This document shows, piece by piece, positions 2,384 to 64,000 of a DNA stretch of 64,000 nt; positions within the stretch are counted from its first letter, which is position 1; the number at the start of each line of letters is the position of its first letter. The translations under genes were made by a program, and so were the position numbers. Under the pieces are notes generated by a model. The model ran no database searches. It had not been told where the DNA came from and saw nothing but the letters and a program-made list of their open reading frames with translations. The stretch lies in NCBI GenBank assembly GCA_009015555.1, contig GCA_009015555.1_3613.1, one strand, 5' to 3'. The stretch comes from a phage.

Positions 2384-2424
2384 CCTTTCAGGCCGGGTAT
2401 TTGCCCGGCCCCAGGAGAACACAC

Positions 2425-16917: not shown

Positions 16918-16946
16918 ATTATGGGGCCTTTCGGCCCCGCTGTCAA
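16918..16946 (-). promoter_or_regulatory. sigma70-type promoter with GC hairpin in spacer (minus strand)
   Basis: Minus strand TTGACA-gcGGGGCCgaaaGGCCC-CATAAT. Confidence 0.7.
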
Positions 16947-19895: not shown

Positions 19896-20089
19896 TAGTC
19901 CTCCGCCGGGGCAGTTAACCCCGCCATGTATCGCCGGGCAACTTGGAGTCCCAACCTCTCCTGTGGGGTGGCCTCATTGAAACCCTCCCCCATCATCTGT
20001 CTCAGTTGGTACTGTGTCACGGCAGACTTGATAGTCTCCTCGTAGCACTCAATCTCAACTGTGAACTTCACAATTTTCTTCTCGGTCAT
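19895..20089 (-). CDS. hypothetical protein
   Basis: AAAGGAGG RBS; promoter just upstream. Confidence 0.5.
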   Translation of the reverse strand: MTEKKIVKFTVEIECYEETIKSAVTQYQLRQMMGEGFNEATPQERLGLQVARRYMAGLTAPAED

Positions 20090-20116
20090 GATGACCTCCT
20101 TTGTTTCGATGGGGCC

Positions 20117-20144
20117 ATATTACCAGAATGAATCTGGACGTCAA
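20117..20144 (-). promoter_or_regulatory. sigma70-type promoter (minus strand)
   Basis: Minus strand TTGACG-16-TAATAT followed by GGCCCC. Confidence 0.55.
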
Positions 20145-20159
20145 CACTTTTCTTCAGGT

Positions 20160-20187
20160 AATAAAAAACCGCCCCGAAGGGCGGTTA
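20160..20187 (-). terminator. rho-independent terminator (minus strand)
   Basis: Minus strand AACCGCCC-TTCG-GGGCGGTT followed by TTTTTATT. Confidence 0.75.
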
Positions 20188-20811
20188 TCTTTTCTTGGTT
20201 TCAATCTTGATTGAGCGCATCAAGCACCGGGAATGATACAGAGCTTGGTCTTGAGAACCGCCGATCATGAGATTAAAACTTGTCCCGTCTGCAAGATCTG
20301 GGATGGCTTTGTTGTTTATCGTTGGCGATCCATCAACAGTTACAGTGAGGCTCTTGTTAATAGACTCGAAGATTATCTCGTGATAAACACCTTTTGTCAC
20401 GGCGGGGCCTGCATTGACCCTGCTGGAATTATACCACCAGTCAAGGTATCCGTTACTCAGCATGTTGGCGATCCAAGTGCCAGACCCGTTTCCTTGAATA
20501 GATCTCCCCACAAATATCATTGGGTTTGTTGCCGCTGCCTTAACCTTCAGATTCATGGTGATCTTCCAGTCATTGTTTAGCAGCTTGTCTGGGGTGGTCC
20601 CTCCGCTCAATGCCCCATCTCCAACAAAATCCATCGCTGGCAGGCCCTCGTCGAGAACCGTCGCGGATGTTCCGGCGGTCCTGTTGAACGTTATCCCGCG
20701 ATCAGTGAATCCTGAGAATGTGCCCAAGGGATACTTGGTGAAGTCCAACTCGAACCAAGTGCTGTACTTTTTCGGATCTCCGCCCCCCGGCAGTACCAAC
20801 ATCTCTTGCAT
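20185..20811 (-). CDS. MQEML-family paralog 1; concanavalin-A/LamG-like lectin fold suspected
   Basis: N-terminus MQEMLVLPGGGD shared with three other genes; beta-rich with a LamG-like segment (LTVTVDGSPTINN). Confidence 0.6.
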   Translation of the reverse strand: MQEMLVLPGGGDPKKYSTWFELDFTKYPLGTFSGFTDRGITFNRTAGTSATVLDEGLPAMDFVGDGALSGGTTPDKLLNNDWKITMNLKVKAAATNPMIFVGRSIQGNGSGTWIANMLSNGYLDWWYNSSRVNAGPAVTKGVYHEIIFESINKSLTVTVDGSPTINNKAIPDLADGTSFNLMIGGSQDQALYHSRCLMRSIKIETKKR

Positions 20812-20825
20812 ATTGCCCCCTAAAA

Positions 20826-20851
20826 GAAAAGGGGCCGAAGCCCCCGGAATA
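20826..20851 (-). terminator. rho-independent terminator after the DNA polymerase gene (minus strand)
   Basis: Minus strand GGGGGCTTCGGCCCC followed by TTTTCTTTT. Confidence 0.7.
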
Positions 20852-20885
20852 CAAGCATTTTACCACAAATGTGTAAAAATAGCCA

Positions 20886-23522
20886 TTAGTGACAATCTCC
20901 CCAGCTTGTGCCCGTCAGGTATTCACCTGTGATGTGGACTGGAGATTTCATCATCTTAGCCGCCTGCTCCACGCACTTAACGACCATCTGCCCGACCGGG
21001 CAATGAATAATCGTGTACACGCCGTTCTCGTCCGGATCACACTTGAACTTACCTTCTTTCACACAGTGACCATCCAGAACCAGACCTTTCGCCAGGCACT
21101 GCTCAACAAAGGCTTTTGCGGTTGCCTCGTCGTTGAACTTCCATTCTTTCTTGAACTTGTGCGGCACTTCAAGCTGGTATTCATCGTGGTAGTAGATGAT
21201 ACGGCGGACGCCTTCATCATACCAGCCACGCTTAACCAACTGCCAGTGCAGCAGGATACCGACCAGATCGAACAGTGCAGCACCGCCGTTCTGCTGGTAT
21301 GCGTTCAGCAAGGAGTGTTTGGAGCGGGTGTAGATCTTACGACCATCGAGGCCGTAGATAAAGCGTTTCCCGGTCAACTCCCAGAACTTCTCAAGTGCTT
21401 CTTTACGACCTTTCAGACCGATGTTGCTATCCCAGAATGCGTCGATTACCGCCTGAGCCTTGTCGAGGGAAATACCCAACATGGAGGCGATCTTCGCGGC
21501 CTGGGCACCGTACATGATGCCGTATGTCACACCCTTACCTTCACCACGGGAAACCTTCTTACCCGCCGCTTTGGTATACGCTTCAGCGTTTCGGCTGTGG
21601 GCGTCACCTGATTCCATGATCCGGAGATATGCCCCGCCGTCGAACTCGTAGGCACCCCATGCTGCGATCATACCTTCGAGGTTTGAGCCGTCGATACCAA
21701 CCTGATATTTCCCTTCAGATGCCCGGAATAAGCCACGCATCTCTTTACCCAGTAAAACCTTCTCGTCTGGTTTAGGGACGTTAGCCACGATTGTGTGCTT
21801 ACGTCGCCCGGTGTTGGTGATCCCAGAATAACGCGCCGGGAGTTTACCGTCAATACGCAGTCGTGGGTGGTTCAGCCATCCTGTGTCAACCTTGTCTTCC
21901 TTGAGCGGGTCAAGTACAGAACGACGGTTACGCAGAGACAGCCACTTCACGATCTGCTTTGCCATATGACCGTCAACCTTCTCCAAGTTCGGACACAGGC
22001 CGCTCATATCTTTCAACTGCGGAGACGTAGGCAGGCCACGGGCCTTACGTCGCAACAGCTTGTACATCTTCTCTTTGTCCTGCCACGCCTTCGGGGTGAT
22101 GCCGAGGTATTCCAGAATAAGATCCCGGTATTCAACTTGGTCCAACTGCTCAATGTACTCACGGACAAGCCCATCGACCTCGTTATCGGGGCGTTGTTTC
22201 TTAAACTGGTCCTTCGTCACATCCTTACTGCGCCACAGGGTTGGCTTCCAGCCTGCATCACGGATAAGGAACTTCTTCACGTCATCTTGGTTACCGATAC
22301 GCATCGGAATCATAATGTCCGGCATGGTTTGGTTCTTCAGATCCAACATTGCCCGTGCCATGTCCTCTGGTGAGAGAGGGATCAGGGTCGTTTGCTTGTT
22401 GTTCTGGTCCCGGATAAACTGCGGCATCGCTGCCTCATCCTCGACACCATGCTCATTGCAATACTTGATTGCTGCCGCCGTCAGGCTACCATCGGCCTTG
22501 AAAGACTTCGCCGGGGGACCCTTAAAGTCGAGTGCCTCCCAGTTGACATTATACCCCAACTTCTCCAGCCACTTCCACCCAGTCCCGGACAAAGATCCAT
22601 CGCCCTTGAACGGCTTAGAAGGGAAGGTCGGTTGTGCTGACTTCGCCATCTCTTTCTTCGGGAGATGGGGTTCAACATCTCCCTCGATCTCTCGCATCAT
22701 TTGATCGATACGGTCACGAAGTTTAAGTGCCGCCTCTTCGTCGAAAGATACGCCCTGAATCTCCTGCTCAATCATCAGGTAGTCTGTCAGCATACCACGA
22801 CGCATGGCATTCTTCCAGTTGATCAGCTTGTACTTCTTGGCGTCCTTATCCTTATCTTCATCCTTGTACATGAAGCGTTTGTCATCTACCAGCTTGCCGT
22901 CGCAGGCGATCTCCTCCATGAGGGCCGTCCACACCATTTCGTTGATGATAACGTCTTCGATGATACGATCACAATACTTCCACAGCGGCAGGCCACGCCA
23001 GTCTTCGATTGCCACTTTCTGGTTGGCAACACGCATACCCCACGCCTCTAAGCCGTGAGGGCCGACAGGTTTCATCTTCCCGGTGACCGGGTTCTTTACC
23101 ATCTCCGGACACCCACGAGGAAGCGGTCGGTCTGGATAAAGAGTTCGAGACATTGACAGAGTGTCGAACAGGTTAACCTGCTTGCCGTTCAGGGTGCCCA
23201 TGCACTTAGGGTCGCCGAACATATCATACTGTGTTCCCAACATCTTTTTAAACAGACGAAGGTCGTAGCCGAACAGGTTGTGGATCGCGATGGATTTAGG
23301 CTCCGTCTTGAACCAATCGTTCAACTCCTCAAAGGTACGAATTTTGAAATTCTTGCCCTTCGATTGGATAAATTTCAACGCCTGATCGTACCCTTCCCGG
23401 TTGGGGTCGAGGAAGATATTCCAGTTATCGACCTTATACTCCTTGAACAGGATCACGTGAAGCTGGTCTACTTCTTCGAGCAGACCATTGGCTTCAGCAT
23501 CCCCTACAAACAACCCTTTCAT
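20886..23522 (-). CDS. family-A DNA polymerase with 3'-5' exonuclease domain
   Basis: Exo motif FVGDAEANG; motif A IDGSNLEGM; motif B R...KGVTYGIMYGA; motif C YYHDEYQLE. AGGAGA RBS before ATG at 23522. Confidence 0.9.
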   Translation of the reverse strand: MKGLFVGDAEANGLLEEVDQLHVILFKEYKVDNWNIFLDPNREGYDQALKFIQSKGKNFKIRTFEELNDWFKTEPKSIAIHNLFGYDLRLFKKMLGTQYDMFGDPKCMGTLNGKQVNLFDTLSMSRTLYPDRPLPRGCPEMVKNPVTGKMKPVGPHGLEAWGMRVANQKVAIEDWRGLPLWKYCDRIIEDVIINEMVWTALMEEIACDGKLVDDKRFMYKDEDKDKDAKKYKLINWKNAMRRGMLTDYLMIEQEIQGVSFDEEAALKLRDRIDQMMREIEGDVEPHLPKKEMAKSAQPTFPSKPFKGDGSLSGTGWKWLEKLGYNVNWEALDFKGPPAKSFKADGSLTAAAIKYCNEHGVEDEAAMPQFIRDQNNKQTTLIPLSPEDMARAMLDLKNQTMPDIMIPMRIGNQDDVKKFLIRDAGWKPTLWRSKDVTKDQFKKQRPDNEVDGLVREYIEQLDQVEYRDLILEYLGITPKAWQDKEKMYKLLRRKARGLPTSPQLKDMSGLCPNLEKVDGHMAKQIVKWLSLRNRRSVLDPLKEDKVDTGWLNHPRLRIDGKLPARYSGITNTGRRKHTIVANVPKPDEKVLLGKEMRGLFRASEGKYQVGIDGSNLEGMIAAWGAYEFDGGAYLRIMESGDAHSRNAEAYTKAAGKKVSRGEGKGVTYGIMYGAQAAKIASMLGISLDKAQAVIDAFWDSNIGLKGRKEALEKFWELTGKRFIYGLDGRKIYTRSKHSLLNAYQQNGGAALFDLVGILLHWQLVKRGWYDEGVRRIIYYHDEYQLEVPHKFKKEWKFNDEATAKAFVEQCLAKGLVLDGHCVKEGKFKCDPDENGVYTIIHCPVGQMVVKCVEQAAKMMKSPVHITGEYLTGTSWGDCH

Positions 23523-46810: not shown

Positions 46811-46838
46811 TTGACTTATCAGATGGCCCATATATAAT
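46811..46838 (+). promoter_or_regulatory. sigma70-type promoter with -10 inside a palindrome
   Basis: TTGACT-16-TATAAT; the -10 sits in the loop of GGCCCAT...ATGGGCC. Confidence 0.65.
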
Positions 46839-46870
46839 GGGCCTCATTGACAACAAAGAGGAGAAATTCA

Positions 46871-55264: not shown

Positions 55265-55440
55265 TATTTGTGGGCCAAGGACGGCTCAGTTTTCAGATCG
55301 GATTTCGATTTGATATTTGCCTGTGATATTTGCGCCGATATTTGAAATCAGATTTCAATTCGAAATTCAATTTGAGATTTTATTTGAGATGGCCCGCCGG
55401 GCCGGGACTCAGATCAGATTCCTTTTTCAGATTTACTCAA
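55263..55440. repeat. cluster of short A/T-rich direct repeats (GATATTTG / GATTTCGA / ATTTGAGAT)
   Basis: gtGATATTTGtg ... GATTTCGATTTGATATTTGcctgtGATATTTGcgccGATATTTGaaatcaGATTTCAATTCGAAATTCAATTTGAGATTTTATTTGAGAT. Confidence 0.7.
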
Positions 55441-55564
55441 CAATGTACCAGCACACCCGGCCCCGGTCAAGGGCTAATGTACCATAAATGTTACATTAAG
55501 GGGCTTATGCACCACTAACGGCACATATACGTTACAATACGGGAGTTATCTCTGGTCAAAAAAT

Positions 55565-55735
55565 TTGAGGGTCTCGATCGGTTTTTCGTTTTGCCGATCG
55601 TATTCTCTGCCCGCCGGGCCGGACTGGGGTCTCGGTACAGAAAGCAGGGTCTCGATCGAAAACTCAATTTCGAGATCGTATTCTCGATACAGGTACAGGT
55701 CTCCGCCCGGGGTCTCGATCGAGATTTCATTTTCA
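55565..55735. repeat. three ~45-bp direct repeats GGGTCTCGATCG-N-CGTATTCTC
   Basis: GGGTCTCGATCG at 55569, 55647 and 55710, each followed 14-18 nt later by CGTATTCTC; GCCCGCCGGGCCGG blocks in between. Confidence 0.75.
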
Positions 55736-55769
55736 AAAACGTATTCTCAAAATCTATACAGAGGTGAAA

Positions 55770-55895
55770 ATCGAAATGAGAATTTTTATCATTCACGTTA
55801 GGCCCGAGGCGAAATGAGAATCGTTCTCATTTGCAAATTGAAATGATAATTATTCGCATTTACGTAGTTGAATGAGAATCATTCTCATCTCCAGA
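55770..55895. repeat. four palindromic repeats GAAATGAGAAT-n-ATTCTCATTT
   Basis: Four copies, two of them perfect palindromes (AAATGAGAA-TCG-TTCTCATTT; ATGAGAAT-C-ATTCTCAT). Confidence 0.75.
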
Positions 55896-56164
55896 ATAGC
55901 GGGCACCCCCGGTGATTGTCTCCGGGTCATTTCTCCCCGCTATGTGTATAATATAGCCCAACCCCGGCCCGGTTGCAAGCGTCTTTACAGTTCTTTACAA
56001 AACTATTTTGGACGAACTACCGGCGATCCACCTTCCGACCTGGCCCCGGTGCCCGGTACGTTAGCCCCGCCTTTTCGCCGTGGGGTGGCGTCTCCTCTCC
56101 TGTATGTGTACATTATGGACTAGCCCCGCCGGGCCGTCAATACCAAAACGAAAATAAATTTTTC

Positions 56165-56193
56165 TTGACCTGCCAGGCAAGCCGGGCCACAAT
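56165..56193 (+). promoter_or_regulatory. sigma70-type promoter
   Basis: TTGACC-17-CACAAT ahead of ORF 56223. Confidence 0.55.
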
Positions 56194-56563: not shown

Positions 56564-56592
56564 TTGACGGGGCCAGCGATAGGCCCCATAAT
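56564..56592 (+). promoter_or_regulatory. sigma70 promoter with GGGGCC...GGCCCC spacer hairpin
   Basis: TTGACG-gGGGCCagcgataGGCCC-CATAAT. Confidence 0.75.
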
Positions 56593-56647
56593 TCACCACA
56601 TAGCGACGCACACCGCGCCGCGCTAACAGAAGAGAGAGACCGTTATC

Positions 56648-57088
56648 ATGTTACATTCAATCAATAAAGAACAACGCCTTTACGTTATGCCTTGCGGGAA
56701 TGGCTTTACCTGCTACGGGTTCGACGTGTTAGACAAACGCGCCCGCGCCTTGTCTGCCTGGTACTTTGAACAGAATCCGCAAGCTATCGCACAGATCCCC
56801 GCCCGGATTGGCACTAAAAAACATTTTAAAGCCTGCCAGGCAGTGATCCAGCAGGTGGGCCGCTATTGCACCCATAAGGGCATTAAATGCCCGGTTGAAT
56901 TGTCGCCACAATTAAAAGGCCTGGAGGGTCGCCGGGTTGAGGTTGTCACCATGTACGGCGAAAAGCGCCGCTTTATTGTGGGCCGTTCTACTGGCTGGCT
57001 GGTCACTCATCTGGAGATCCCCCGCGCCAACAGTAGCGGCGGTATGAGCGCCGAAAAACAATACAAATCTGTAACCGTCATAAAATAA
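56648..57088 (+). CDS. small early-type protein (146 aa)
   Basis: Own promoter and a conserved leader shared with ORFs 60528 and 63616. Confidence 0.6.
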   Translation: MLHSINKEQRLYVMPCGNGFTCYGFDVLDKRARALSAWYFEQNPQAIAQIPARIGTKKHFKACQAVIQQVGRYCTHKGIKCPVELSPQLKGLEGRRVEVVTMYGEKRRFIVGRSTGWLVTHLEIPRANSSGGMSAEKQYKSVTVIK

Positions 57089-57101
57089 TTTAAAAATAGT
57101 A

Positions 57102-57130
57102 TTGACACCGGGGCCACCTGGCCCCATACT
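57102..57130 (+). promoter_or_regulatory. sigma70 promoter with spacer hairpin
   Basis: TTGACA-ccGGGGCCacctGGCCC-CATACT. Confidence 0.7.
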
Positions 57131-57180
57131 ACAAACAAGCCCGGCAAATGGTGCCCGGCAAAATCAGAGAGTAAAAGAAA

Positions 57181-57402
57181 ATGGCTAAAGTAACCTATAA
57201 AAAATCACGTGGCATTTCCTCTGTTAACCTGGCGGCGGTTGTAACCCTGCCCGCATACCGTACCCGCGACGAGGCCCGCGCCGTTGCCAGTAAGATCCGC
57301 GCCGCTGGCGTGACCCCGACAACGCCAACCAAAACGGCGGACGGCTGGCGCGTTACCGCAAAGCATAACGGCGGCACACTTTCCCGCAACACTCACCGCT
57401 AA
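57181..57402 (+). CDS. small early-type protein (73 aa)
   Basis: Purine-rich RBS; own promoter. Confidence 0.55.
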   Translation: MAKVTYKKSRGISSVNLAAVVTLPAYRTRDEARAVASKIRAAGVTPTTPTKTADGWRVTAKHNGGTLSRNTHR

Positions 57403-57409
57403 CCAATTG

Positions 57410-57434
57410 CAGGCCCCCGCCGGGGGCCTTTCGT
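57410..57434 (+). terminator. GC hairpin with weak T-tract (possible terminator or processing site)
   Basis: GGCCCCC-GCCG-GGGGCC followed by TTTCGTGT. Confidence 0.4.
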
Positions 57435-57448
57435 GTGGAGTCAGTACC

Positions 57449-57793
57449 ATGACCAAACAGATCCCCGCTGTCCAGATCACGCCGCTTTTCCGTTGCCATA
57501 TCTTTTATGACTGTAATGATCTTGCGGGGCAATGGATCGGCGATACCGATCAACAATATGATTTCCCGGAATGGGACGAACTAAACCGCCGTGTAAGCAA
57601 CGCCGCACACAATGCCGATCCTGATAGCCTGGCGGACGTGGAACACTTCCCCGGCGGGGCCGCTTGCTTTCCTTATATTGAGATCACCGCGCCAACGTGG
57701 GCGCTATGTAAAGCGATGAGCGACGCCGTGATCCGTTGCATCCTGGACAATGGCGGGATCGTCGAACCAAAAGACAACGGAATAAATATTTAA
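57449..57793 (+). CDS. small early-type protein (114 aa)
   Basis: GGAG RBS; no promoter of its own. Confidence 0.5.
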   Translation: MTKQIPAVQITPLFRCHIFYDCNDLAGQWIGDTDQQYDFPEWDELNRRVSNAAHNADPDSLADVEHFPGGAACFPYIEITAPTWALCKAMSDAVIRCILDNGGIVEPKDNGINI

Positions 57794-57812
57794 ATTATTT
57801 TGCTTTTGGGGG

Positions 57813-57841
57813 TTGACGCCCGGCGGCGCTTCCCCCATAAT
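57813..57841 (+). promoter_or_regulatory. sigma70 promoter with GC-rich spacer
   Basis: TTGACG-17-CATAAT, flanked by GGGGG / CCCCC. Confidence 0.7.
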
Positions 57842-57894
57842 ACACCACATAGGGCGACGGAATAACCCGCCGCCAAAAACCAAAAGGTAACAGT

Positions 57895-58134
57895 ATGCAA
57901 ACCGTAATGATTAGCCACCCGGATCACGCTTCAGATTTCTACGCACCGATCTACGCCCCGCTTGAATGGCAACGCCAGGGCCTGCAAAAAACCGCCACGG
58001 GCTATGGCACCAAGATCCCCACGTCCTATATGTTGGACTATCAAGGCAAGCGCCGCCGGATCTATGTTGACCAGTACAGCAACGCCGGGCACACTTACAT
58101 AATGATCAAAGGCGAAAAAATTACAGTTTGCTAA
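57895..58134 (+). CDS. small early-type protein (79 aa)
   Basis: AAAAGG RBS; own promoter. Confidence 0.55.
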   Translation: MQTVMISHPDHASDFYAPIYAPLEWQRQGLQKTATGYGTKIPTSYMLDYQGKRRRIYVDQYSNAGHTYIMIKGEKITVC

Positions 58135-58143
58135 AAATAATTG

Positions 58144-58172
58144 TTGACCGGGGGCCGGGTAGGCCCCATAAT
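58144..58172 (+). promoter_or_regulatory. sigma70 promoter with spacer hairpin
   Basis: TTGACC-gGGGGCCgggtaGGCCC-CATAAT. Confidence 0.75.
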
Positions 58173-58212
58173 ACCAGACATACCAAACAGACAAGAAAAC
58201 GAGGCTTACAAA

Positions 58213-58443
58213 ATGAATCTGACTACTATCGGCGCTAACCAAACCATGATCACCCTGGCCGACGGCTCACAGGTTTTCTTTTCCTACAATACCCCGGTTG
58301 CGGCATACCTGCCCGGCGTGGGCTATGTAGTGACCGCCAAAAAGCACAGCGCCACCACGTCAAAACATGTTAATGCTTGGGCTGGCAAAGGTTGCGACAC
58401 CCGCCCACAGGAATTTTTTGATAATCTCATTAAATCCGCTTGA
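58213..58443 (+). CDS. small early-type protein (76 aa)
   Basis: GAGG RBS; track start 58141 lies inside the promoter. Confidence 0.55.
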   Translation: MNLTTIGANQTMITLADGSQVFFSYNTPVAAYLPGVGYVVTAKKHSATTSKHVNAWAGKGCDTRPQEFFDNLIKSA

Positions 58444-58469
58444 CGTTTGAATTATGCCGGGGTTATAAT
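58440..58469 (+). promoter_or_regulatory. sigma70 promoter with -10 in a hairpin loop
   Basis: TTGACG-18-TATAAT; GCCGGGG-ttataat-TCCCGGC. Confidence 0.7.
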
Positions 58470-58519
58470 TCCCGGCATAGACAAGCGAAAGCAAACAACC
58501 AAACCGAAAGGATCACACA

Positions 58520-58900
58520 ATGAACATTATCAACACTGTAAACGCCGCCGACATCAAAGAAATTTCCGTAACTGGTAAACGTTGGTTCCAGCGTAGCTAC
58601 GGCAACACTTATCACAGCGTAAGCCTGGGGGCGCTGGTATCCGTTGAAGTGGCGGACCGCTTAGGCGCTAACAAGTACGGCAACAAAAGCGGCGACGTGT
58701 GGATCGACCTGGCTTATGTTGGTTTCGCCTATGGTTATGATCGCGGGTTCGAACAAACCGCATTAAGCGCGATGATCGAGGCGGTGAAGGATGCCCCGGC
58801 GGCGTGGCGTGGTATGTCCTACGCTTGCCAGGCGGCGGCGGATCTCGGGGTTGTCTACACTGATAACGTTTATGATGTTAGCCGCAAAAAAGATTTATAA
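58520..58900 (+). CDS. small early-type protein (126 aa)
   Basis: AAAGGA RBS; GYDRGFEQTAL segment loosely resembles GYNREDAAFQEAI in ORF 59264. Confidence 0.6.
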   Translation: MNIINTVNAADIKEISVTGKRWFQRSYGNTYHSVSLGALVSVEVADRLGANKYGNKSGDVWIDLAYVGFAYGYDRGFEQTALSAMIEAVKDAPAAWRGMSYACQAAADLGVVYTDNVYDVSRKKDL

Positions 58901-58906
58901 TTTTGG

Positions 58907-58936
58907 TTGACACGGGGCCGGGTTAGGCCCCATAAT
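58907..58936 (+). promoter_or_regulatory. sigma70 promoter with spacer hairpin
   Basis: TTGACA-cGGGGCCgggttaGGCCC-CATAAT. Confidence 0.75.
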
Positions 58937-58968
58937 ACCCCCACACCAACAGAAAAGAGATTGACACC

Positions 58969-59178
58969 ATGATCAACGAACAGCAAGTAAACGACGTTAA
59001 ACATGAGGCTTACCAGGTGGCGATCCGTAGTGGTTCCCGCGCCGCCTTCAATCTGGTTATTGAGTTGTACCCTGAACAGGCGGAAAATATTTTAATGCAG
59101 GTTTCCGTATTACTGGAAGCAACAAAGCACACCAAATTAAGCGCCGGGATCGATAAGCTGGCAAAAAGTTTAAAATAG
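58969..59178 (+). CDS. small early-type protein (69 aa)
   Basis: AAGAGA RBS; own promoter. Confidence 0.55.
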   Translation: MINEQQVNDVKHEAYQVAIRSGSRAAFNLVIELYPEQAENILMQVSVLLEATKHTKLSAGIDKLAKSLK

Positions 59179-59181
59179 TTG

Positions 59182-59211
59182 TTGACTCTTACCCCGTCCC
59201 GCTGGCATAAT
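59182..59211 (+). promoter_or_regulatory. sigma70 promoter with -10 in a hairpin loop
   Basis: TTGACT-18-CATAAT; GTCCCGCT-ggcataat-AGCGGGAC. Confidence 0.7.
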
Positions 59212-59263
59212 AGCGGGACTGATTAAGAGAAACACCACAAACCAAACGAAGAGAGAAAACATT

Positions 59264-59650
59264 ATGAACGCTACTTACGATTTTTCCAACATGGTTGTAA
59301 CTTCTGGCGACCTGGGCAAGGCCCGTAACCAAAACAATTTTTACAAGGCCGTTCACCTGGTCGGGCTGGTAGACAATGAGATCAAAGATCTGGCGGAGGT
59401 CCGCTTCTACGGCACCGGGAAAACTAACACGGCGATCCTTTGGATTCACTCCCCGATCCTGGGTCTGTATGGTTCGGAGTTTGGCAAGGCTGGCGGCTAT
59501 GGCTATAATCGCGAAGATGCAGCATTTCAGGAGGCGATCCGCAAGATGGGGGTTAAGGGTGACGGATACCATACGCCCCGCGATTTTTTCGAGGCCCTTG
59601 CTAAATATCTTGGGGTTGCTGTATACTCTGTTATTGAATCCCATGCTTAA
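59264..59650 (+). CDS. small early-type protein (128 aa)
   Basis: AAGAGAGAAA RBS; own promoter. Confidence 0.6.
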   Translation: MNATYDFSNMVVTSGDLGKARNQNNFYKAVHLVGLVDNEIKDLAEVRFYGTGKTNTAILWIHSPILGLYGSEFGKAGGYGYNREDAAFQEAIRKMGVKGDGYHTPRDFFEALAKYLGVAVYSVIESHA

Positions 59651-59659
59651 TGGTGTATA

Positions 59660-59971
59660 ATGACAATCGTAACTCTGATTTGTTTAGCACTGGCGGCGCT
59701 TTATTGCGTCGCCACTCACAAAGCCGCACTATGGCGAAAGGGTCAAAAAATGTACGGTTATTTTGAATACGAGTACAAAGGGGAGAAGGGATCAAGCCGG
59801 GACTATGGCGCAATGTGTGAGATCGATATGGTTGGCGCTATGAACTACCGCCAGGAGTTGGGCGCGGTGATCACTTATGAGGTTTACGACTCCTCAGAAG
59901 AGAAGATCGGAGAAATAATCGATCAACGTTACTACATGGAACAACAGCAAAACAAACGCCGGAGAAGATGA
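59660..59971 (+). CDS. hypothetical protein with N-terminal hydrophobic segment (start uncertain)
   Basis: Track ORF; alternative start at MYGYFEYEY; no clear promoter. Confidence 0.4.
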   Translation: MTIVTLICLALAALYCVATHKAALWRKGQKMYGYFEYEYKGEKGSSRDYGAMCEIDMVGAMNYRQELGAVITYEVYDSSEEKIGEIIDQRYYMEQQQNKRRRR

Positions 59972-59973
59972 GA

Positions 59974-60108
59974 ATGATTCACACTAACATTAACCGCGAT
60001 AAACAACCGCGCCGCGCCCGTCTCTCATACGCTGAAGCAGGCGAGCGCCTGCAACGTGAGAAGGCCAACAAACAACAGCGCCGTAAAACGCGCTATAACT
60101 GGGAGTAA
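59974..60108 (+). CDS. tiny Arg/Lys-rich protein (44 aa)
   Basis: Hand-translated MIHTNINRDKQPRRARLSYAEAGERLQREKANKQQRRKTRYNWE; GGAGAAGATGAGA before the ATG. Confidence 0.35.
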   Translation: MIHTNINRDKQPRRARLSYAEAGERLQREKANKQQRRKTRYNWE

Positions 60109-60143
60109 GCGCCCCGGCATGGAAACACCAGGCCAAACAGTTT

Positions 60144-60170
60144 AAACCGCACAGGGGGCCGCTTAGGCCC
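60144..60170 (+). terminator. rho-independent terminator
   Basis: GGGGGCC-GCTTA-GGCCCC followed by TTATTTTTT. Confidence 0.75.
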
Positions 60171-60184
60171 CTTATTTTTTATCT

Positions 60185-60424
60185 ATGGGGTACACAATGC
60201 AAAACCTTTTAACCTTAACAGATTTTATCCGGGCTATGGGGTCCCGTCCGATGGGGTTTAGCGCCCTTTACCTGGTAACCGATGGCAAAGGATACCGCGC
60301 CACCTGCAAAGCGCTTGCCGCCGTTGCGGCCCGCGAAGGGGTCAAGATCTCCACGGGTCAAGCCTTGGTAGTTGACCCGGCGACATTGGCAACGGCGGAG
60401 GCGATCCGGGTCACTGTAAAATAA
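60185..60424 (+). CDS. small early-type protein (75-79 aa)
   Basis: ATG at 60185 or 60197; no promoter of its own. Confidence 0.5.
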   Translation: MGYTMQNLLTLTDFIRAMGSRPMGFSALYLVTDGKGYRATCKALAAVAAREGVKISTGQALVVDPATLATAEAIRVTVK

Positions 60425-60448
60425 TTTAAAATATTTTCATCCTGGGGC

Positions 60449-60477
60449 TTGACGTCCGGCCCCGGTTCCCCCATAAT
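60449..60477 (+). promoter_or_regulatory. sigma70 promoter with GC-rich spacer
   Basis: TTGACG-tccGGCCCCggttcccc-CATAAT. Confidence 0.75.
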
Positions 60478-60527
60478 CTAACCCATAGCGACGCACACCG
60501 CGCCGCACTAACAGAAGAGAGACCGTT

Positions 60528-60962
60528 ATGACTTCCCCAATTTTCCGTATCAAATCAGGTTTATCCGTTTACGCACTGGCTTGCGGCTATATCCAAGAGA
60601 TCGACACAAAGATCACCGGGAAAAATATCCGGGTACAGCTTTTAATGGAACACGGCGCTTTTCACGTCAAGGCACATGATTTTGATGACGTGGGCCGGAT
60701 CGAGTGGGTTGTTGAAGATCAGATCGGCGACGCCCGCACACAATGGAAAGCGCTTGTTAATCAGCTTTTCGGGGAAGTTATCCGCACAATCAAAAAAGAT
60801 AAGCGCTACACCGTAACCCGTGAATTTTCCGGCGACCCTTGCGGGGCCTTGTATGTTACCCGTTTTTGTGGGGAATTTGTAAGCCGTGCCGACACAATCC
60901 CCGGCGCATGGGTAAAAGCCGCCGAACACAACGCCGAAAGAATGAAAAATTATCAAAAATAA
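60528..60962 (+). CDS. small early-type protein (144 aa)
   Basis: Shares the conserved leader with ORFs 56648 and 63616. Confidence 0.6.
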   Translation: MTSPIFRIKSGLSVYALACGYIQEIDTKITGKNIRVQLLMEHGAFHVKAHDFDDVGRIEWVVEDQIGDARTQWKALVNQLFGEVIRTIKKDKRYTVTREFSGDPCGALYVTRFCGEFVSRADTIPGAWVKAAEHNAERMKNYQK

Positions 60963-60964
60963 TT

Positions 60965-60993
60965 GTTGACCGGGGCCGGGTTAGGCCCCATAA
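60965..60993 (+). promoter_or_regulatory. sigma70 promoter with spacer hairpin
   Basis: TTGACC-GGGGCCgggttaGGCCC-CATAAT. Confidence 0.75.
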
Positions 60994-61025
60994 TACCCCC
61001 AGACAAACAAACCGGAGTTAGACCA

Positions 61026-61178
61026 ATGAAACAATATCTTGTAAACATCCCTGGCGTGGCTGGCCCGTTGAAAGTTTATGGCTATGATGAGCAGGACGCA
61101 AGAAAGCGCCTACGTGATCGGGAAGGTTTCGGATCACGCCTCCCACGTGGCACAAAATTTTATTTGCAAAACGCTTGA
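61026..61178 (+). CDS. tiny basic protein (50 aa)
   Basis: GGAG RBS; track start 60963 lies inside the promoter. Confidence 0.45.
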   Translation: MKQYLVNIPGVAGPLKVYGYDEQDARKRLRDREGFGSRLPRGTKFYLQNA

Positions 61179-61203
61179 CGTGTGGTTATGCCGTCGCCTA
61201 TAA
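61174..61203 (+). promoter_or_regulatory. sigma70 promoter with -10 in a hairpin loop
   Basis: TTGACG-18-TATAAT; ATGCCGTC-gcctataat-GACGGCAT. Confidence 0.7.
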
Positions 61204-61257
61204 TGACGGCATAGACAAACGAAAGCAACACCAGACAACCAAACGAGGGTTAAAATT

Positions 61258-61515
61258 ATGTTTGAAGTATTCGCCGGAATGTGTTTTTATGCCGCCGCCG
61301 CTTTAAAACAGTGTGATGATTACACCGTTGAAGCATACGACGATCAGTTAACTTGCGAGATCGTCGCCAACGGCTACCGCCAGGACCCGCGCTGGATTAA
61401 TCCGGCTTGTATCCCTGGGCCGGAAGTTGAAGCAATGCCGGAAGGTGAGCCGCTATTAGAACCGATCCCGGCGGCTAATCACTTGAACGTAAACCCGGCG
61501 CAAAAAGAGTATTAA
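61258..61515 (+). CDS. small early-type acidic protein (85 aa)
   Basis: GAGGG RBS; own promoter. Confidence 0.55.
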   Translation: MFEVFAGMCFYAAAALKQCDDYTVEAYDDQLTCEIVANGYRQDPRWINPACIPGPEVEAMPEGEPLLEPIPAANHLNVNPAQKEY

Positions 61516-61521
61516 AAGCGC

Positions 61522-61551
61522 TTGACGCCGGGACGGTTCCCGGCTTATAAT
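61522..61551 (+). promoter_or_regulatory. sigma70 promoter, CCGGGA...TCCCGG spacer palindrome
   Basis: TTGACG-CCGGGAcggtTCCCGGC-TTATAAT. Confidence 0.8.
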
Positions 61552-61588
61552 CTCAGACATACCAAACAGGCAAATGAGGCCGCAAATC

Positions 61589-61795
61589 ATGACACGTTAT
61601 TTTGTTACTCGCAATGTTTACCGCTTAGAAAATGGCAACGTTTACCGCTGGAGTGGGGCGCGTGGTGGCTGGTTGCACCGTGACGGCTTTACCCCTTCAG
61701 ATCTCACCGATGGGACCGTGATCGGCGCGGTTGAGGTATCAGAAGAGGAAGCAAACCGCCGGATCTCTGAATTGTTAAAAGGCGGTGCAAAATGA
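61589..61795 (+). CDS. small early-type protein (68 aa)
   Basis: GAGG RBS; own promoter. Confidence 0.5.
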   Translation: MTRYFVTRNVYRLENGNVYRWSGARGGWLHRDGFTPSDLTDGTVIGAVEVSEEEANRRISELLKGGAK

Positions 61796-61971
61796 AATCA
61801 TCTTTACTTTTCGCCCTGGTTGACATCGTGATCGGCAATGGTTGCGGGCAACATACATTTATTGCTAACCGCCCCTATCCGCTAAAGTCATTGCAGGCTG
61901 ACGCCCGATTAACAGCGGCACAGATCCGCCGCTACTTTCGGGAACCACACCCGGCAAAGAATGCAAAATAA
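61792..61971 (+). CDS. small protein (59 aa), translationally coupled
   Basis: Hand-translated MKSSLLFALVDIVIGNGCGQHTF..; ATGA overlap. Confidence 0.4.
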   Translation: MKSSLLFALVDIVIGNGCGQHTFIANRPYPLKSLQADARLTAAQIRRYFREPHPAKNAK

Positions 61972-61974
61972 TTG

Positions 61975-62004
61975 TTGACGCCGGGCACCGTCCCGGCTTA
62001 CAAT
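61975..62004 (+). promoter_or_regulatory. sigma70 promoter, GCCGGG...CCCGGC spacer palindrome
   Basis: TTGACG-CCGGGCaccgTCCCGGC-TTACAAT. Confidence 0.75.
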
Positions 62005-62034
62005 GACCCCACACAAACAAACGAGGCTTTAAAC

Positions 62035-62340
62035 ATGCAACAGGCTAACACTCTTTTCATTCTGGCAAACGTAGCGGATCACGTCGTGGCGTCGCTGTCC
62101 AACGTAGCGGGCACCGTCCAGATCATTTGTCGTCATATGGATGACAAAGCGCCGAACCGCTTACAAATCAACGTAGACCGCGACGGGAAAGAATTTGTGA
62201 TCTCTTATGACGCTATCTATAATGGCAACCGGATCACGCAAGCCAAAAGCCAACCGATCCCCGCCGATTTTATCCAGCAAGTGATCGCCGAAATCGTAAA
62301 CGACACGATCCCAGCGGGGGCGCTGTATGAATCCGCATAA
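62035..62340 (+). CDS. small early-type protein (101 aa)
   Basis: GAGG RBS; track start 61972 lies inside the promoter. Confidence 0.55.
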   Translation: MQQANTLFILANVADHVVASLSNVAGTVQIICRHMDDKAPNRLQINVDRDGKEFVISYDAIYNGNRITQAKSQPIPADFIQQVIAEIVNDTIPAGALYESA

Positions 62341-62482
62341 ACTCTTAATCACCAGTTACCCCAGCAAGGCGGATCGCCGTGAAACTTTGGACCGCTTAAC
62401 GCGCTACTATCAGGAGGCCGGGCACAATAAGACAACCGCCCGCGCCCTGGCTAAAAAGCGTTTGCGATTTGGTAAAAATTAG
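62327..62482 (+). CDS. tiny basic protein (51 aa)
   Basis: Hand-translated MNPHKLLITSYPSKADRRETLDRLTRYYQEAGHNKTTARALAKKRLRFGKN; overlaps the upstream gene by 14 nt. Confidence 0.4.
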   Translation: MNPHKLLITSYPSKADRRETLDRLTRYYQEAGHNKTTARALAKKRLRFGKN

Positions 62483-62483
62483 C

Positions 62484-62513
62484 TTGACGCCGGGAACCGT
62501 CCCGGCTTATAAT
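62484..62513 (+). promoter_or_regulatory. sigma70 promoter, GCCGGG...CCCGGC spacer palindrome
   Basis: TTGACG-CCGGGAaccgTCCCGGC-TTATAAT. Confidence 0.8.
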
Positions 62514-62564
62514 CTCTCACATAGCGCGGGGGATGGTCCCCGCATTATCTAAGAGGTTATGAAT

Positions 62565-62717
62565 ATGTTTACTTTGATGACTTGGGAACACGAAACAAGC
62601 TCCCCGATCCGCCGCACTTTTGAAGACCTATGCGCCGCTTATCGCCTGGCGCAAGGCGGTTATTATAAGGCCCAAATCATTGATGAAAACAATGTGATCA
62701 TGTACGAATTTAAATGA
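62565..62717 (+). CDS. tiny protein (50 aa)
   Basis: Hand-translated MFTLMTWEHETSSPIRRTFEDLCAAYRLAQGGYYKAQIIDENNVIMYEFK; AAGAGG RBS 8 nt upstream. Confidence 0.45.
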   Translation: MFTLMTWEHETSSPIRRTFEDLCAAYRLAQGGYYKAQIIDENNVIMYEFK

Positions 62718-62746
62718 TTGACATCCGGCCCGAAAGGGCCGATAAT
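62718..62746 (+). promoter_or_regulatory. sigma70 promoter with spacer hairpin
   Basis: TTGACA-tccGGCCCgaaaGGGCC-GATAAT. Confidence 0.7.
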
Positions 62747-62777
62747 GACCCACACCAACAAAAGAGAGACCGTAAAA

Positions 62778-62984
62778 ATGATTACAATGATTCTGCAAAA
62801 GTCCCGCCTGATTGATGTTACTGTTACCCTGTCCGCTTGCGGTGAATCATCCCGCCGGGCCGATCATTACCAGGTTACCGCTGTAAGCGACAACGGCGCG
62901 ATCCTTCTCTCTGAAGCGACCCCCGCGCTACATGAGGCATTTTTGACCTATTCGAAGTGGAAAGGGCCGGAAGAAATAAAATAA
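62778..62984 (+). CDS. small early-type protein (68 aa)
   Basis: Track start 62718 lies inside the promoter; start taken at MITMILQ. Confidence 0.5.
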   Translation: MITMILQKSRLIDVTVTLSACGESSRRADHYQVTAVSDNGAILLSEATPALHEAFLTYSKWKGPEEIK

Positions 62985-62991
62985 AAAGTAG

Positions 62992-63020
62992 TTGACGGCG
63001 GGGCCGATAGGCCCCATAAT
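62992..63020 (+). promoter_or_regulatory. sigma70 promoter with spacer hairpin
   Basis: TTGACG-gcGGGGCCgataGGCCC-CATAAT. Confidence 0.75.
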
Positions 63021-63052
63021 ACCCCCACACCAAACGAAATAGGATTCACAAA

Positions 63053-63307
63053 ATGTTAAAATTCATCAAATCACTTTTCACCCGCACCGCCCCGGCTTGC
63101 AAGTTGCCACCGCTGGAGGCGCAAGGCGTGATCGCTCGCAAAGTCTCAGAACTGTTTATCATTTCATTGGTTCACAATGGCGGCGACTGTTACGAAATCA
63201 TCGAAATGGGCCGCTACACCAACACCGGATCAAGCCGTGTCCGCTACGGTGAACACCGCGCCCGGAATCATTTTGATTCTGTATGCTGTATGGTTGGTGC
63301 AAAATGA
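63053..63307 (+). CDS. small early-type protein (84 aa)
   Basis: AGGA RBS; own promoter. Confidence 0.55.
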   Translation: MLKFIKSLFTRTAPACKLPPLEAQGVIARKVSELFIISLVHNGGDCYEIIEMGRYTNTGSSRVRYGEHRARNHFDSVCCMVGAK

Positions 63308-63516
63308 TCGCGTTTACCTTTGAGCGCCTGCCGGACACCTCCCCCCGCTGGGGGGAGTGTGAAGAGGTTGTGATCCTTGCCCGCGATGAGGCGCAAGCCT
63401 GGCAGATGTTAGGGGAATATGTAGCGGCGCACACGTTGCCAGCCTGGAAGCTGGCAGAACAAAAGCCAGCCGCGCCCGGCGTGATCTTTTTCACGTCCTA
63501 CACGTTAGGCGTTTAA
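63304..63516 (+). CDS. small protein (70 aa), translationally coupled
   Basis: ATGA overlap with the upstream stop. Confidence 0.5.
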   Translation: MIAFTFERLPDTSPRWGECEEVVILARDEAQAWQMLGEYVAAHTLPAWKLAEQKPAAPGVIFFTSYTLGV

Positions 63517-63533
63517 TCTTTACAAAACTATTG

Positions 63534-63563
63534 TTGACGCCGGGCACCGTCCCGGCCTATAAT
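63534..63563 (+). promoter_or_regulatory. sigma70 promoter, GCCGGG...CCCGGC spacer palindrome
   Basis: TTGACG-CCGGGCaccgTCCCGGC-CTATAAT, followed by the conserved leader. Confidence 0.8.
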
Positions 63564-63615
63564 TCACCACATAGCGACGCACACCGCGCCGCGCTAACAG
63601 AAGAGAGATCGTAAA

Positions 63616-63991: not shown

Positions 63992-64000
63992 GTTGACGCC
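63992..64000 (+). promoter_or_regulatory. start of another promoter of the same family, cut by the window edge
   Basis: AAAATAAAGTTGACGCC at the last bases, matching the -35 context of the family. Confidence 0.4.

Follow-up and report, generated by a model that had tools for sequence, protein, structure and literature searches.

Promoter-early stem-loops (PeSLs) have been described in the T4-type phages RB49/phi1, T4/PST and KVP40/nt-1, where they concentrate among the ORFans of hyperplastic regions (Arbiol et al. 2010, PMC2839356; Comeau et al. 2014, PMC4122927). The stem-loop of RB49 PeSL211/210 cut lacZ expression as strongly as rrnB T1, the intact promoter of PeSL206/205 gave around 13,000 Miller units, and recombination at the PeSLs of RB49/phi1 forms mini-circles and explains indels, the crossovers mapping to PeSLs and one of them lying inside the loop (PMC2839356; PMC4122927). 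Here we describe GC-rich inverted repeats in the promoters of a small-gene array on a 64,000-nucleotide (nt) stretch of phage DNA (contig GCA_009015555.1_3613.1 of assembly GCA_009015555.1; the whole stretch is referred to as the window). Each intergenic unit is a composite cassette of PeSL type, around 60-100 base pairs (bp) long.

The window phage is a Certrevirus, and for this genus a putative early promoter, AAAA(N3)TGTTGAC(N19)TATAAT, has been published (Buttimer et al. 2020, PMC7344957). Its sites, 13 in CB7, 21 in CR3, 21 in CR8 and 13 in CR9, are clustered among short hypothetical open reading frames (PMC7344957). The rV5 and CB7 papers state that no phage RNA polymerase is encoded (CB7 paper PMC7344957).

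Composite cassettes in the small-gene array

Within Certrevirus (Vequintavirinae, rV5-like myoviruses) the closest match is Cronobacter phage PBES 02, which is 95.8% identical over the 8 kb around the array; the remaining Certrevirus phages align to these 8 kb at 84-97% identity. The array spans 56.2 to 64 kb and continues past the window end in PBES 02, whose annotation of the region gives ~25 small genes on a single strand, all 'hypothetical protein'. Pfam searches with 20 array proteins left 18 without a match and gave one sub-threshold match and a sole family above the cut-off, the domain of unknown function DUF7170. No recognisable DNA-binding domain was found in these 20 proteins, the rest of the genome and the host lying outside that search. 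The array is an ORFan region in the sense that its genes are small and mostly without recognisable homologues. Rfam (E <= 1) and ARAGORN gave no match in the region or the window.

Promoters were scanned for with the pattern TTGAC, 17-19 nt, then nA[T/C]A[A/C]T; a narrower pattern, TAnAAT, misses the CATAAT/GATAAT class and was therefore relaxed. On the coding strand between 56165 and 63534 the scan gives 17 promoter-like sites, all intergenic and fitting TTGAC-N17/18-[C/T/G]A[T/C]A[A/C]T, so that 17 small-gene junctions carry a near-consensus sigma-70 promoter; an 18th is severed by the window end. Perfect inverted repeats of at least 6 bp within 38 nt after TTGAC are found in 14 of the 17, against 0.54 +/- 0.72 expected from composition-preserving shuffles (maximum 4 in 1000 trials), and 6.4% of random window 38-mers contain such a repeat. 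The GC-rich palindromes that an earlier note on this DNA had reported in most array promoters are hence real, and the limits it gave are exact, 56564 being the first hairpin-bearing TTGAC and 63563 the final -10 base of the last complete one.

That note had recognised two arm motifs. Both are far above chance in the window (GGGGCC-N4-7-GGCCCC, 8 matches against 0.01 expected; GCCGGG-N4-6-CCCGGC, 5 against 0.02), but they cover only 10 of the 17 promoters. Arms outside both are CGGCCC/GGGCCG (62718), TATGCCGGG/CCCGGCATA (58440), TATGCCGTC/GACGGCATA (61175) and GTCCCGCT/AGCGGGAC (59182). A stem-loop is present in 16 of the 17 cassettes, with folding energies of -11.9 to -20.4 kcal/mol (-11.9 to -17.2 kcal/mol for the 14 spacer or -10 hairpins). 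Eleven occupy the spacer between the -35 and -10, the place first assigned to them, whereas three units have arms of 8-9 bp flanking the -10, which puts the -10 inside the loop, and two more (57813, 60449) have stems reaching around or into the -35 (-20.4 and -14.6 kcal/mol). Spacer GC content is 59-88%, bar one spacer at 47%. Contrary to the earlier description, stems of the GGGGCC class run into the -10: their final base doubles as the opening base of the hexamer, hence CATAAT/GATAAT in place of TATAAT. The cassettes and related stem-loops of the window are as follows (window coordinates; z, folding z-score).

56165..56193, + strand: first array promoter, TTGACC-17-CACAAT, after ~900 bp of non-coding DNA; the sole cassette without a stem-loop (z -0.3, -0.7).
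56564..56592, + strand: spacer stem-loop GGGGCC-agcgata-GGCCCC at 56569-56587, its last C opening CATAAT (-13.6 kcal/mol, z -2.5).
57102..57130, + strand: spacer stem-loop GGGGCC-acct-GGCCCC at 57110-57125; -10 is CATACT.
57411..57429, + strand: GGCCCCCG-ccg-GGGGGCC then TTTCGTG, no promoter; conventional-looking terminator in a 46-nt gene gap (-19.3 kcal/mol).
57807..57841, + strand: stem UGGGGG/CCCCCA (57807-57837) around the -35 and spacer (-20.4 kcal/mol, z -2.6).
58144..58172, + strand: stem-loop GGGGCC-gggta-GGCCCC at 58151-58167.
58440..58479, + strand: 9-bp arms TATGCCGGG/CCCGGCATA at 58453-58479 around the -10 (-17.2 kcal/mol, z -3.5).
58907..58936, + strand: stem-loop GGGGCC-gggtta-GGCCCC at 58914-58931.
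59182..59219, + strand: 8-bp arms GTCCCGCT/AGCGGGAC at 59196-59219 around the -10 (-17.1 kcal/mol, z -4.0).
60153..60173, + strand: promoter-less AGGGGGCC-gctta-GGCCCCTT then ATTTTTTAT; canonical intrinsic terminator with a stem as in the promoter hairpins (-16.2 kcal/mol, z -2.5).
60442..60477, + strand: stem CUGGGGCU/GGCCCCGG at 60442-60465 overlapping the -35 (-14.6 kcal/mol, z -1.1).
60966..60994, + strand: stem-loop GGGGCC-gggtta-GGCCCC at 60972-60989.
61175..61213, + strand: 9-bp arms TATGCCGTC/GACGGCATA at 61187-61213 around the -10 (-16.1 kcal/mol, z -3.0).
61522..61551, + strand: stem-loop GCCGGGA-cggt-TCCCGGC at 61527-61544, 2 nt short of TATAAT.
61975..62004, + strand: stem-loop GCCGGG-caccgt-CCCGGC at 61980-61997.
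62484..62513, + strand: stem-loop GCCGGGA-accg-TCCCGGC at 62489-62506; the DUF7170 gene (62559-62717) lies downstream.
62718..62746, + strand: stem-loop CGGCCC-gaaa-GGGCCG at 62726-62741; -10 is GATAAT and TTGAC directly follows the upstream stop (-13.9 kcal/mol, z -3.9).
62992..63020, + strand: stem-loop GGGGCC-gata-GGCCCC at 63000-63015.
63534..63563, + strand: stem-loop GCCGGG-caccgt-CCCGGC at 63539-63556.
63993..64000, + strand: start of the next cassette (TTGACGCC), severed by the window end.
46811..46843, + strand: cassette outside the array, 5' of a 420-aa ATPase-like gene; arms GGCCCAT/ATGGGCC (46825-46843) overlap the -10 (z -2.3).
16918..16946, - strand: complete cassette between 669-aa and 132-aa genes, TAATTGAC, GGGGCC-gaaa-GGCCCC (16923-16938), ATAAT, Shine-Dalgarno (SD) motif, ATG (z -2.7).
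2391..2410, + strand: bare stem-loop, GGCCGGG-tatttg-CCCGGCC, after one gene's stop codon and ahead of the SD and ATG that follow; no promoter, no T-run (-16.2 kcal/mol).

The order of parts is constant: an A/T-rich tract with the upstream stop codon, a TTGAC-N17/18-[C/T]ATAAT promoter, the GC-rich stem-loop, a CA-rich leader, an SD motif and the start codon. The upstream gene's stop codon lies a median of 6 nt before TTGAC (range -4 to 41), and the 25 nt upstream of TTGAC are 73% A+T against 49% window-wide. From the -10 to the start codon there are 29-55 nt (median 45), with an SD-like motif in the final 16 nt of every leader. Cassettes occupy 17 of the 24 gene junctions; both sizeable gaps that lack one hold a T-run terminator, and the other cassette-free junctions are overlapping or near-abutting genes. 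In some units the stop codon overlaps the -35, as TGA within TTGAC at 58440-58443 and 61175-61178 and as TAA within TAATTGAC at 16949-16942 on the minus strand, which illustrates the dense packing of coding sequence with signals.

The leaders have features of their own. Those of the array (e.g. 58173-58212, 61552-61588) are rich in CA and poor in G, which makes up 16% outside the SD, with CATA(C/G) 6-8 nt past the -10, at the expected transcription start. A near-identical 5' leader of ~50 nt is common to three cassettes (56593-56647, 60478-60527 and 63564-63615; CACATAGCGACGCACACCGCGCCGC[G/A]CTAACAGAAGAGAGA...) and is, as judged from this likeness, a repeated leader module. Leaders of many relatives open with CACATAGGGCG.

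The cassette catalogue covers six relatives, PBES 02, P7_Pc, CB7, phiTE, KaOmega and CR9; F1M1E and POP15 entered only the interior-mismatch count given below, and PVP-SE1, from another genus, was scanned separately. PeSL-type cassettes are found genus-wide in Certrevirus and are present at least partly in the Seunavirus PVP-SE1.

Selection on pairing rather than on arm sequence

At least eight arm sequences occur, with loops of 3-12 nt and in three placements (spacer, around the -10, around the -35); the GGGGCC class by itself has loops of 4, 5, 6 or 7 nt. Among orthologues of the window hairpins, substitutions per site come to 0.024 for stems, 0.075 for flanks and 0.137 for loops; loops thus change at ~6 times and flanks at ~3 times the stem rate.

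The arms nevertheless differ widely between cassettes while keeping their complementarity. This is clearest in one cassette family with stems around the -10 and conserved flanks TTGACGt...GACAAgCGAAA, in which the 5' arm is TATGCCGGG, TATGCCGTC, TATAGGTC or TCTGCCGGGT, each with a complementary 3' arm; the PVP-SE1 member has arm AATGTGTGG, again with its matching 3' arm. A MAFFT alignment of this family lost register for members with one extra pair and was replaced by an arms-only pseudo-alignment, on which covariation was scored. Among 11 distinct members both sides change at 8 of the 10 pairs, and 95.5% of cells are paired, although picking the 5' register by best pairing inflates this percentage (it does not inflate the diversity of pair types). 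None of 500 shuffles reaches any of the five measures, and slid registers are 31-47% paired. The comparison of covariation with strict conservation of the arms, which the earlier note had suggested, thus comes out for covariation in this family.

Single sites show the same. At 46811 the arms are GGCCCAT/ATGGGCC here and GGGCCAT/ATGGCCC in CR9, and in P7_Pc a stem has changed between GGGCC/GGCCC and GGGTC/GACCC. Such a compensatory pattern is, in the genomes compared, the signature of a base-paired structure. Changes on one side of a stem are few and partly shared, with ~6-7 G.T against 1-2 A.C on the sense strand; a strict count of interior single mismatches over 10 arrays leaves 3 events, with G.T and A.C at 2 and 0.

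Two further comparisons were set aside. Folding of whole segments in sense and antisense is confounded by the CA-rich leader, which turns GU-rich on the antisense strand. Pairs just beyond the stem cores are uninformative, being dominated by the fixed C...A of TTGAC and ATAAT.

Breakpoints and the probable role of the stem-loop

Gene content differs between relatives at the cassettes. When the window is aligned with the six relatives, 24 of 38 alignment-block ends fall within -40 to +80 of TTGAC, a zone that makes up 24.8% of the region (P = 6e-7), and 15 of 23 do so after shared breakpoints are merged (P = 5e-5); these counts share ancestry, and BLAST blocks tend to stop in the similarity between paralogous cassettes, so the test is best taken as supportive and not as independent proof. 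In P7_Pc the gene at 56648-57088, which lies between two cassettes, has been replaced and an additional gene with its cassette inserted at 61522, and in KaOmega the cassette type switches precisely at 59182. The idea of a duplicated promoter cassette, which the earlier note had entertained, is in this respect partly, even essentially, right: the units are repeated and modular, and breakpoints lie at them.

We consider it probable, largely by analogy with the PeSLs, that the stem-loop stops or attenuates transcripts arriving from the upstream unit, while the repeated cassettes serve as recombination points. A cassette's own transcript begins past the stem or within its 3' arm; the hairpin is therefore restricted to RNA from promoters further upstream. 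The 56165 cassette is the only one without an upstream gene reading into it and the only one without a stem, which fits a role on upstream transcripts, as do the recurrence of the stem types as ordinary terminators in the array, the abutment of the stem on the A/T-only ATAAT and the experimental precedent in RB49. At 60153 and 57411 similar stems without a promoter precede a T-run, and one more stands bare at 2392. The earlier note had reasoned from a constrained sigma-70 spacer to an effect on RNA polymerase; it passed over the fact that the upstream gene's transcript has its 3' end in this same stretch. Of its structure-dependent switch, the structure stands, since base-pairing is selected, while a role on upstream transcripts is likelier than a switch of the promoter.

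In the mechanism we propose, the stem-loop in incoming RNA would act as a terminator or attenuator, possibly also as a 3'-end stabiliser. Each small early gene would thereby be kept as its own unit, cumulative read-through would be limited, and incoming polymerases would be kept off the next promoter. The all-A/T ATAAT that abuts the stem may replace the weak hybrid of a U-tract, a suggestion of our own. Repeated similar cassettes would offer homology points for swapping, inserting and deleting ORFan genes. For termination or attenuation, promoter strength and mini-circle recombination we infer from the RB49/phi1 experiments. The RB49 stem tested there has -9.3 kcal/mol, the tail ATACTACA and no U-tract; the window stems compared with it have -10.8 to -16.2 kcal/mol.

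Several observations weigh against this interpretation. The tails after promoter-embedded stems are poor U-tracts with 0-4 T in 8 nt, and the three stems around the -10 have GACAAGCG-type tails. A terminator scanner calls none of the promoter-embedded stems, and only the promoter-less stem at 60153 passes. Single-hairpin z-scores in the GGGGCC class are only -0.9 to -2.5, modest because GC-rich shuffles fold well too. The one-sided changes are a weak test of folding on the sense strand, that is in the RNA, and a hairpin at the DNA level is compatible with them. What the RB49 experiment measured was reporter output, in which termination and RNA decay look alike (PMC2839356; PMC4122927). The limits stated above on the paired percentage and on the breakpoint counts belong on the same side.

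Some of this would suit a stem-loop that is mainly an element of mRNA stability or processing, a 3' hairpin blocking exonucleases after cleavage in an AU-rich tract. The stems have AU-rich tracts on either side and poor U-tracts as tails, the bare 2392 stem stands between cistrons with no T-run, and the RB49 reporter assay is blind to mechanism. A stabiliser alone, however, would not bring a downstream reporter down to the rrnB T1 level as seen in RB49, and the strict abutment of stem and ATAAT in two unrelated phage groups is what a terminator, and not a stabiliser, would require. We regard this explanation as unlikely.

Stems that are nearly always perfect Watson-Crick palindromes could fold on both strands, and a hairpin or cruciform extruded from supercoiled or replicating DNA might act as a promoter switch or as a structure-specific recombination site. 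The stem is set precisely against the -12/-11 boundary of the -10, the published RB49 crossovers lie within PeSLs with one in the loop, and breakpoints cluster at the cassettes here as well. In a switch, extruding the spacer would abolish the distance that separates -35 from -10. For a cruciform to extrude spontaneously, 6-bp arms are short. Against such a scheme stand equal stems away from promoters, as terminators and as the bare intercistronic hairpin, and the lack of a stem in the first array promoter, into which no upstream gene reads; what one-sided changes there are run mainly to G.T on the sense strand, and plain homology between cassettes suffices for the breakpoints. A DNA-level role is in our judgement quite improbable.

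Far less can be said for an operator at which a dimeric phage or host regulator would occlude RNA polymerase and shut off early promoters, the explanation that the earlier note had placed first. The interval between -35 and -10 is the classic operator position, two arm classes are found repeatedly in the window (GGGGCC at 8 places, GCCGGG at 5), and early promoters need to be shut off in phages that, by the rV5 and CB7 papers, encode no RNA polymerase. The half-sites, however, are conserved neither in sequence, with at least eight unrelated arms that undergo compensatory changes, nor in spacing (3-12 nt overall, loops of 4-7 nt within one arm class), nor in position relative to the promoter, of which there are three. 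Loops evolve faster than flanks while the arms stay conserved, equal stems occur outside promoters, and Pfam finds no DNA-binding domain in the 20 array proteins. We hold an operator to be highly improbable.

That the palindromes are functionless, carried along in copies of one duplicated promoter or a by-product of GC-rich spacers, is scarcely credible: several cassettes are near-identical (e.g. 58907 and 60966, and in several relatives) and the spacers are GC-rich apart from the one at 47%, but shuffles of the same composition give 0.54 hairpins and not 14, unrelated arms keep their pairing in stems ~6 and ~3 times more conserved than loops and flanks, and an independent phage family has the same design. 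Avoidance or methylation of restriction sites (GGCC, CCGG) was dropped as an explanation, several stems containing neither site.

Wider distribution, neighbouring elements and comparison with known systems

The DUF7170 gene (62559-62717, 52 aa) is found in 449 phage records from unrelated families, including Certrevirus, Krischvirus and the T1-like Webervirus. In Krischvirus JSE, which is RB49-like, it stands (L014 633-856) behind TTGAC GGGGATC-gcga-GATCCCC TATACT. For a second gene of the array, homologues are found in other families, T4-like cyanophages among them. Traffic of ORFans across families behind a common cassette design is compatible with these data, two examples being no proof of it. 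Upstream of DUF7170 in Webervirus KpKT21phi1 (L015 505-853) there are boxes resembling a -35 and a -10 (TTGTTA...TATTAT). They enclose a small inverted repeat, ACCCG...CGGGT, weaker than those of the window, and a leader catcgacaacgaa is present as well, a hint that Drexlerviridae have similar cassettes.

We raise only tentatively, as a possible but doubtful extension, that PeSL-type cassettes are not peculiar to the T4 family and that virulent enterobacterial phages of unrelated families (Straboviridae/Krischvirus, Vequintavirinae, possibly also T1-like Drexlerviridae) share them as an exchangeable regulatory module, behind which the same ORFan families would travel; the presence of cassettes in PVP-SE1, of another genus, is compatible with this too. 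A common 'plug' of this kind would express and insulate a gene wherever it landed, and the stem-loop might aid the exchange.

Should the proposed role of the cassettes hold, the published N17/N19 spacer of Certrevirus would not be free sequence; it would make up half of another signal that overlaps the promoter. These cassettes would escape annotation pipelines in which promoters and terminators are predicted independently, and nearly every array gene would be its own insulated unit. PeSLs would reach beyond T4-like phages, and compact promoter/terminator cassettes would gain strength as a general route by which large virulent phages acquire, express and shuffle small accessory (anti-host) genes. 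The cassettes would furthermore supply synthetic biology with natural, very compact promoter-plus-insulator parts of ~30 bp, and on them one could ask cleanly whether an A/T-only -10 is able to take the place of a U-tract. They reveal no new regulator.

Some neighbouring elements were noted on the way. The bare stem-loop at 2391-2410 may be an intercistronic RNA element sharing the stem type of the promoter hairpins. On the minus strand at 55982-56107, at the expected start of a divergent promoter (TTGACgGCCCggcgGGGCtagtcCATAAT; TTGAC at 56140), lies an element of ~125 nt, conserved in 236 phage records from two subfamilies, Vequintavirinae and Stephanstirmvirinae (phi92, ESCO13), where annotations hardly ever include it. 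Its core CGCCACCCCACGGCGAAAAGGCGGGGCTAACGTACC...GGTCGGAAGGTGGATCGCCGGTAG is nearly invariant. Neither an Rfam family nor a tRNA matches it, and folded as a single sequence it is not significant; the RNAalifold consensus has two hairpins, in which 2 pairs show compensatory changes and the tip is variable. We regard it as a candidate small RNA.

The ~900 bp of non-coding DNA 5' of the array contain several families of iteron-like direct repeats (55265-55900): a 40-nt repeat in 3 copies at 55568, 55646 and 55709 (AGGGTCTCGATCG...CGTATTCTC), a 23-nt repeat in 4 copies at 55775-55893 (reference copy AATGAGAATCGTTCTCATTTGCA) and a 21-nt repeat in 5 copies at 55285-55433. The region may be an origin or another protein-binding region. 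Just beyond the array end, where the window stops short, relatives have an unannotated gap of ~1.5 kb (phiTE (L004) 21213-22681; CB7 (L003) 20011-21539). The phiTE genome has pseudo-ToxI repeats, and the 21213-22681 gap might be their locus.

Among known elements, canonical intrinsic terminators resemble the cassettes in having a GC-rich stem-loop after a stop codon, and the array has true examples at 57411 and 60153. They have a U-tract, whereas the promoter-embedded stems are followed by ATAAT/TATAAT (2-4 T in 8 nt) or GACAAGCG. The 'terminator' annotations of phiTE and P7_Pc mark T-run terminators only and do not overlap promoter hairpins.

The early promoters of phage N4 take a hairpin form with a fixed 3-nt loop and are read by a virion RNA polymerase. 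They share with the cassettes short GC-rich inverted repeats at phage early promoters. The window cassettes differ from them in having full sigma-70 -35/-10 boxes and loops of 3-12 nt, and Certrevirus phages, by the CB7 paper, encode no RNA polymerase (PMC7344957).

The published Certrevirus promoter represents the same sites in the same genus as the window cassettes. That paper leaves the spacer as N, has no inverted repeat, palindrome or hairpin in its text, and predicts terminators separately (PMC7344957).

It is with the PeSLs that the design is identical. Both have the same order of parts, from the AT-rich stop tract to SD and ATG, the same stem-loop subclasses (between -35 and -10, over the -10, over the -35) with G-run/C-run stems, and the same dense placement between ORFans with links to indels and replacements. 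Our own scan of RB49 gave a spacer class, aaaaaagttgTTGAC AGGGGATC-acc-GATCCCC Tatact, whose stems end on the first base of the -10 as those of the window do. The scan also gave a -10-overlapping subclass (GGGGATATagcataATATCCCC) and a CA-rich leader with CAT(A/C) at the expected start. The leader likeness, acacccataccgaaac against accagacataccaaac, is approximate only and we claim no homology; the RB49 leader motif CATACC[AG]AAAC has no exact match in the window.

The differences lie elsewhere. The window cassettes belong to a Certrevirus (Vequintavirinae) and not to a T4-like phage; their stems are GC-only (GGGGCC, GCCGGG, CGGCCC) and more stable, against GGGGAT(C) in PeSLs; and their -10 is often CATAAT or GATAAT, unlike that of PeSLs. 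Collectively, the window cassettes match the PeSL anatomy, a resemblance that may stem from common descent, exchange or convergence. The searchable literature describes PeSLs for T4-like phages only, and the cassettes of Vequintavirinae extend this known kind.

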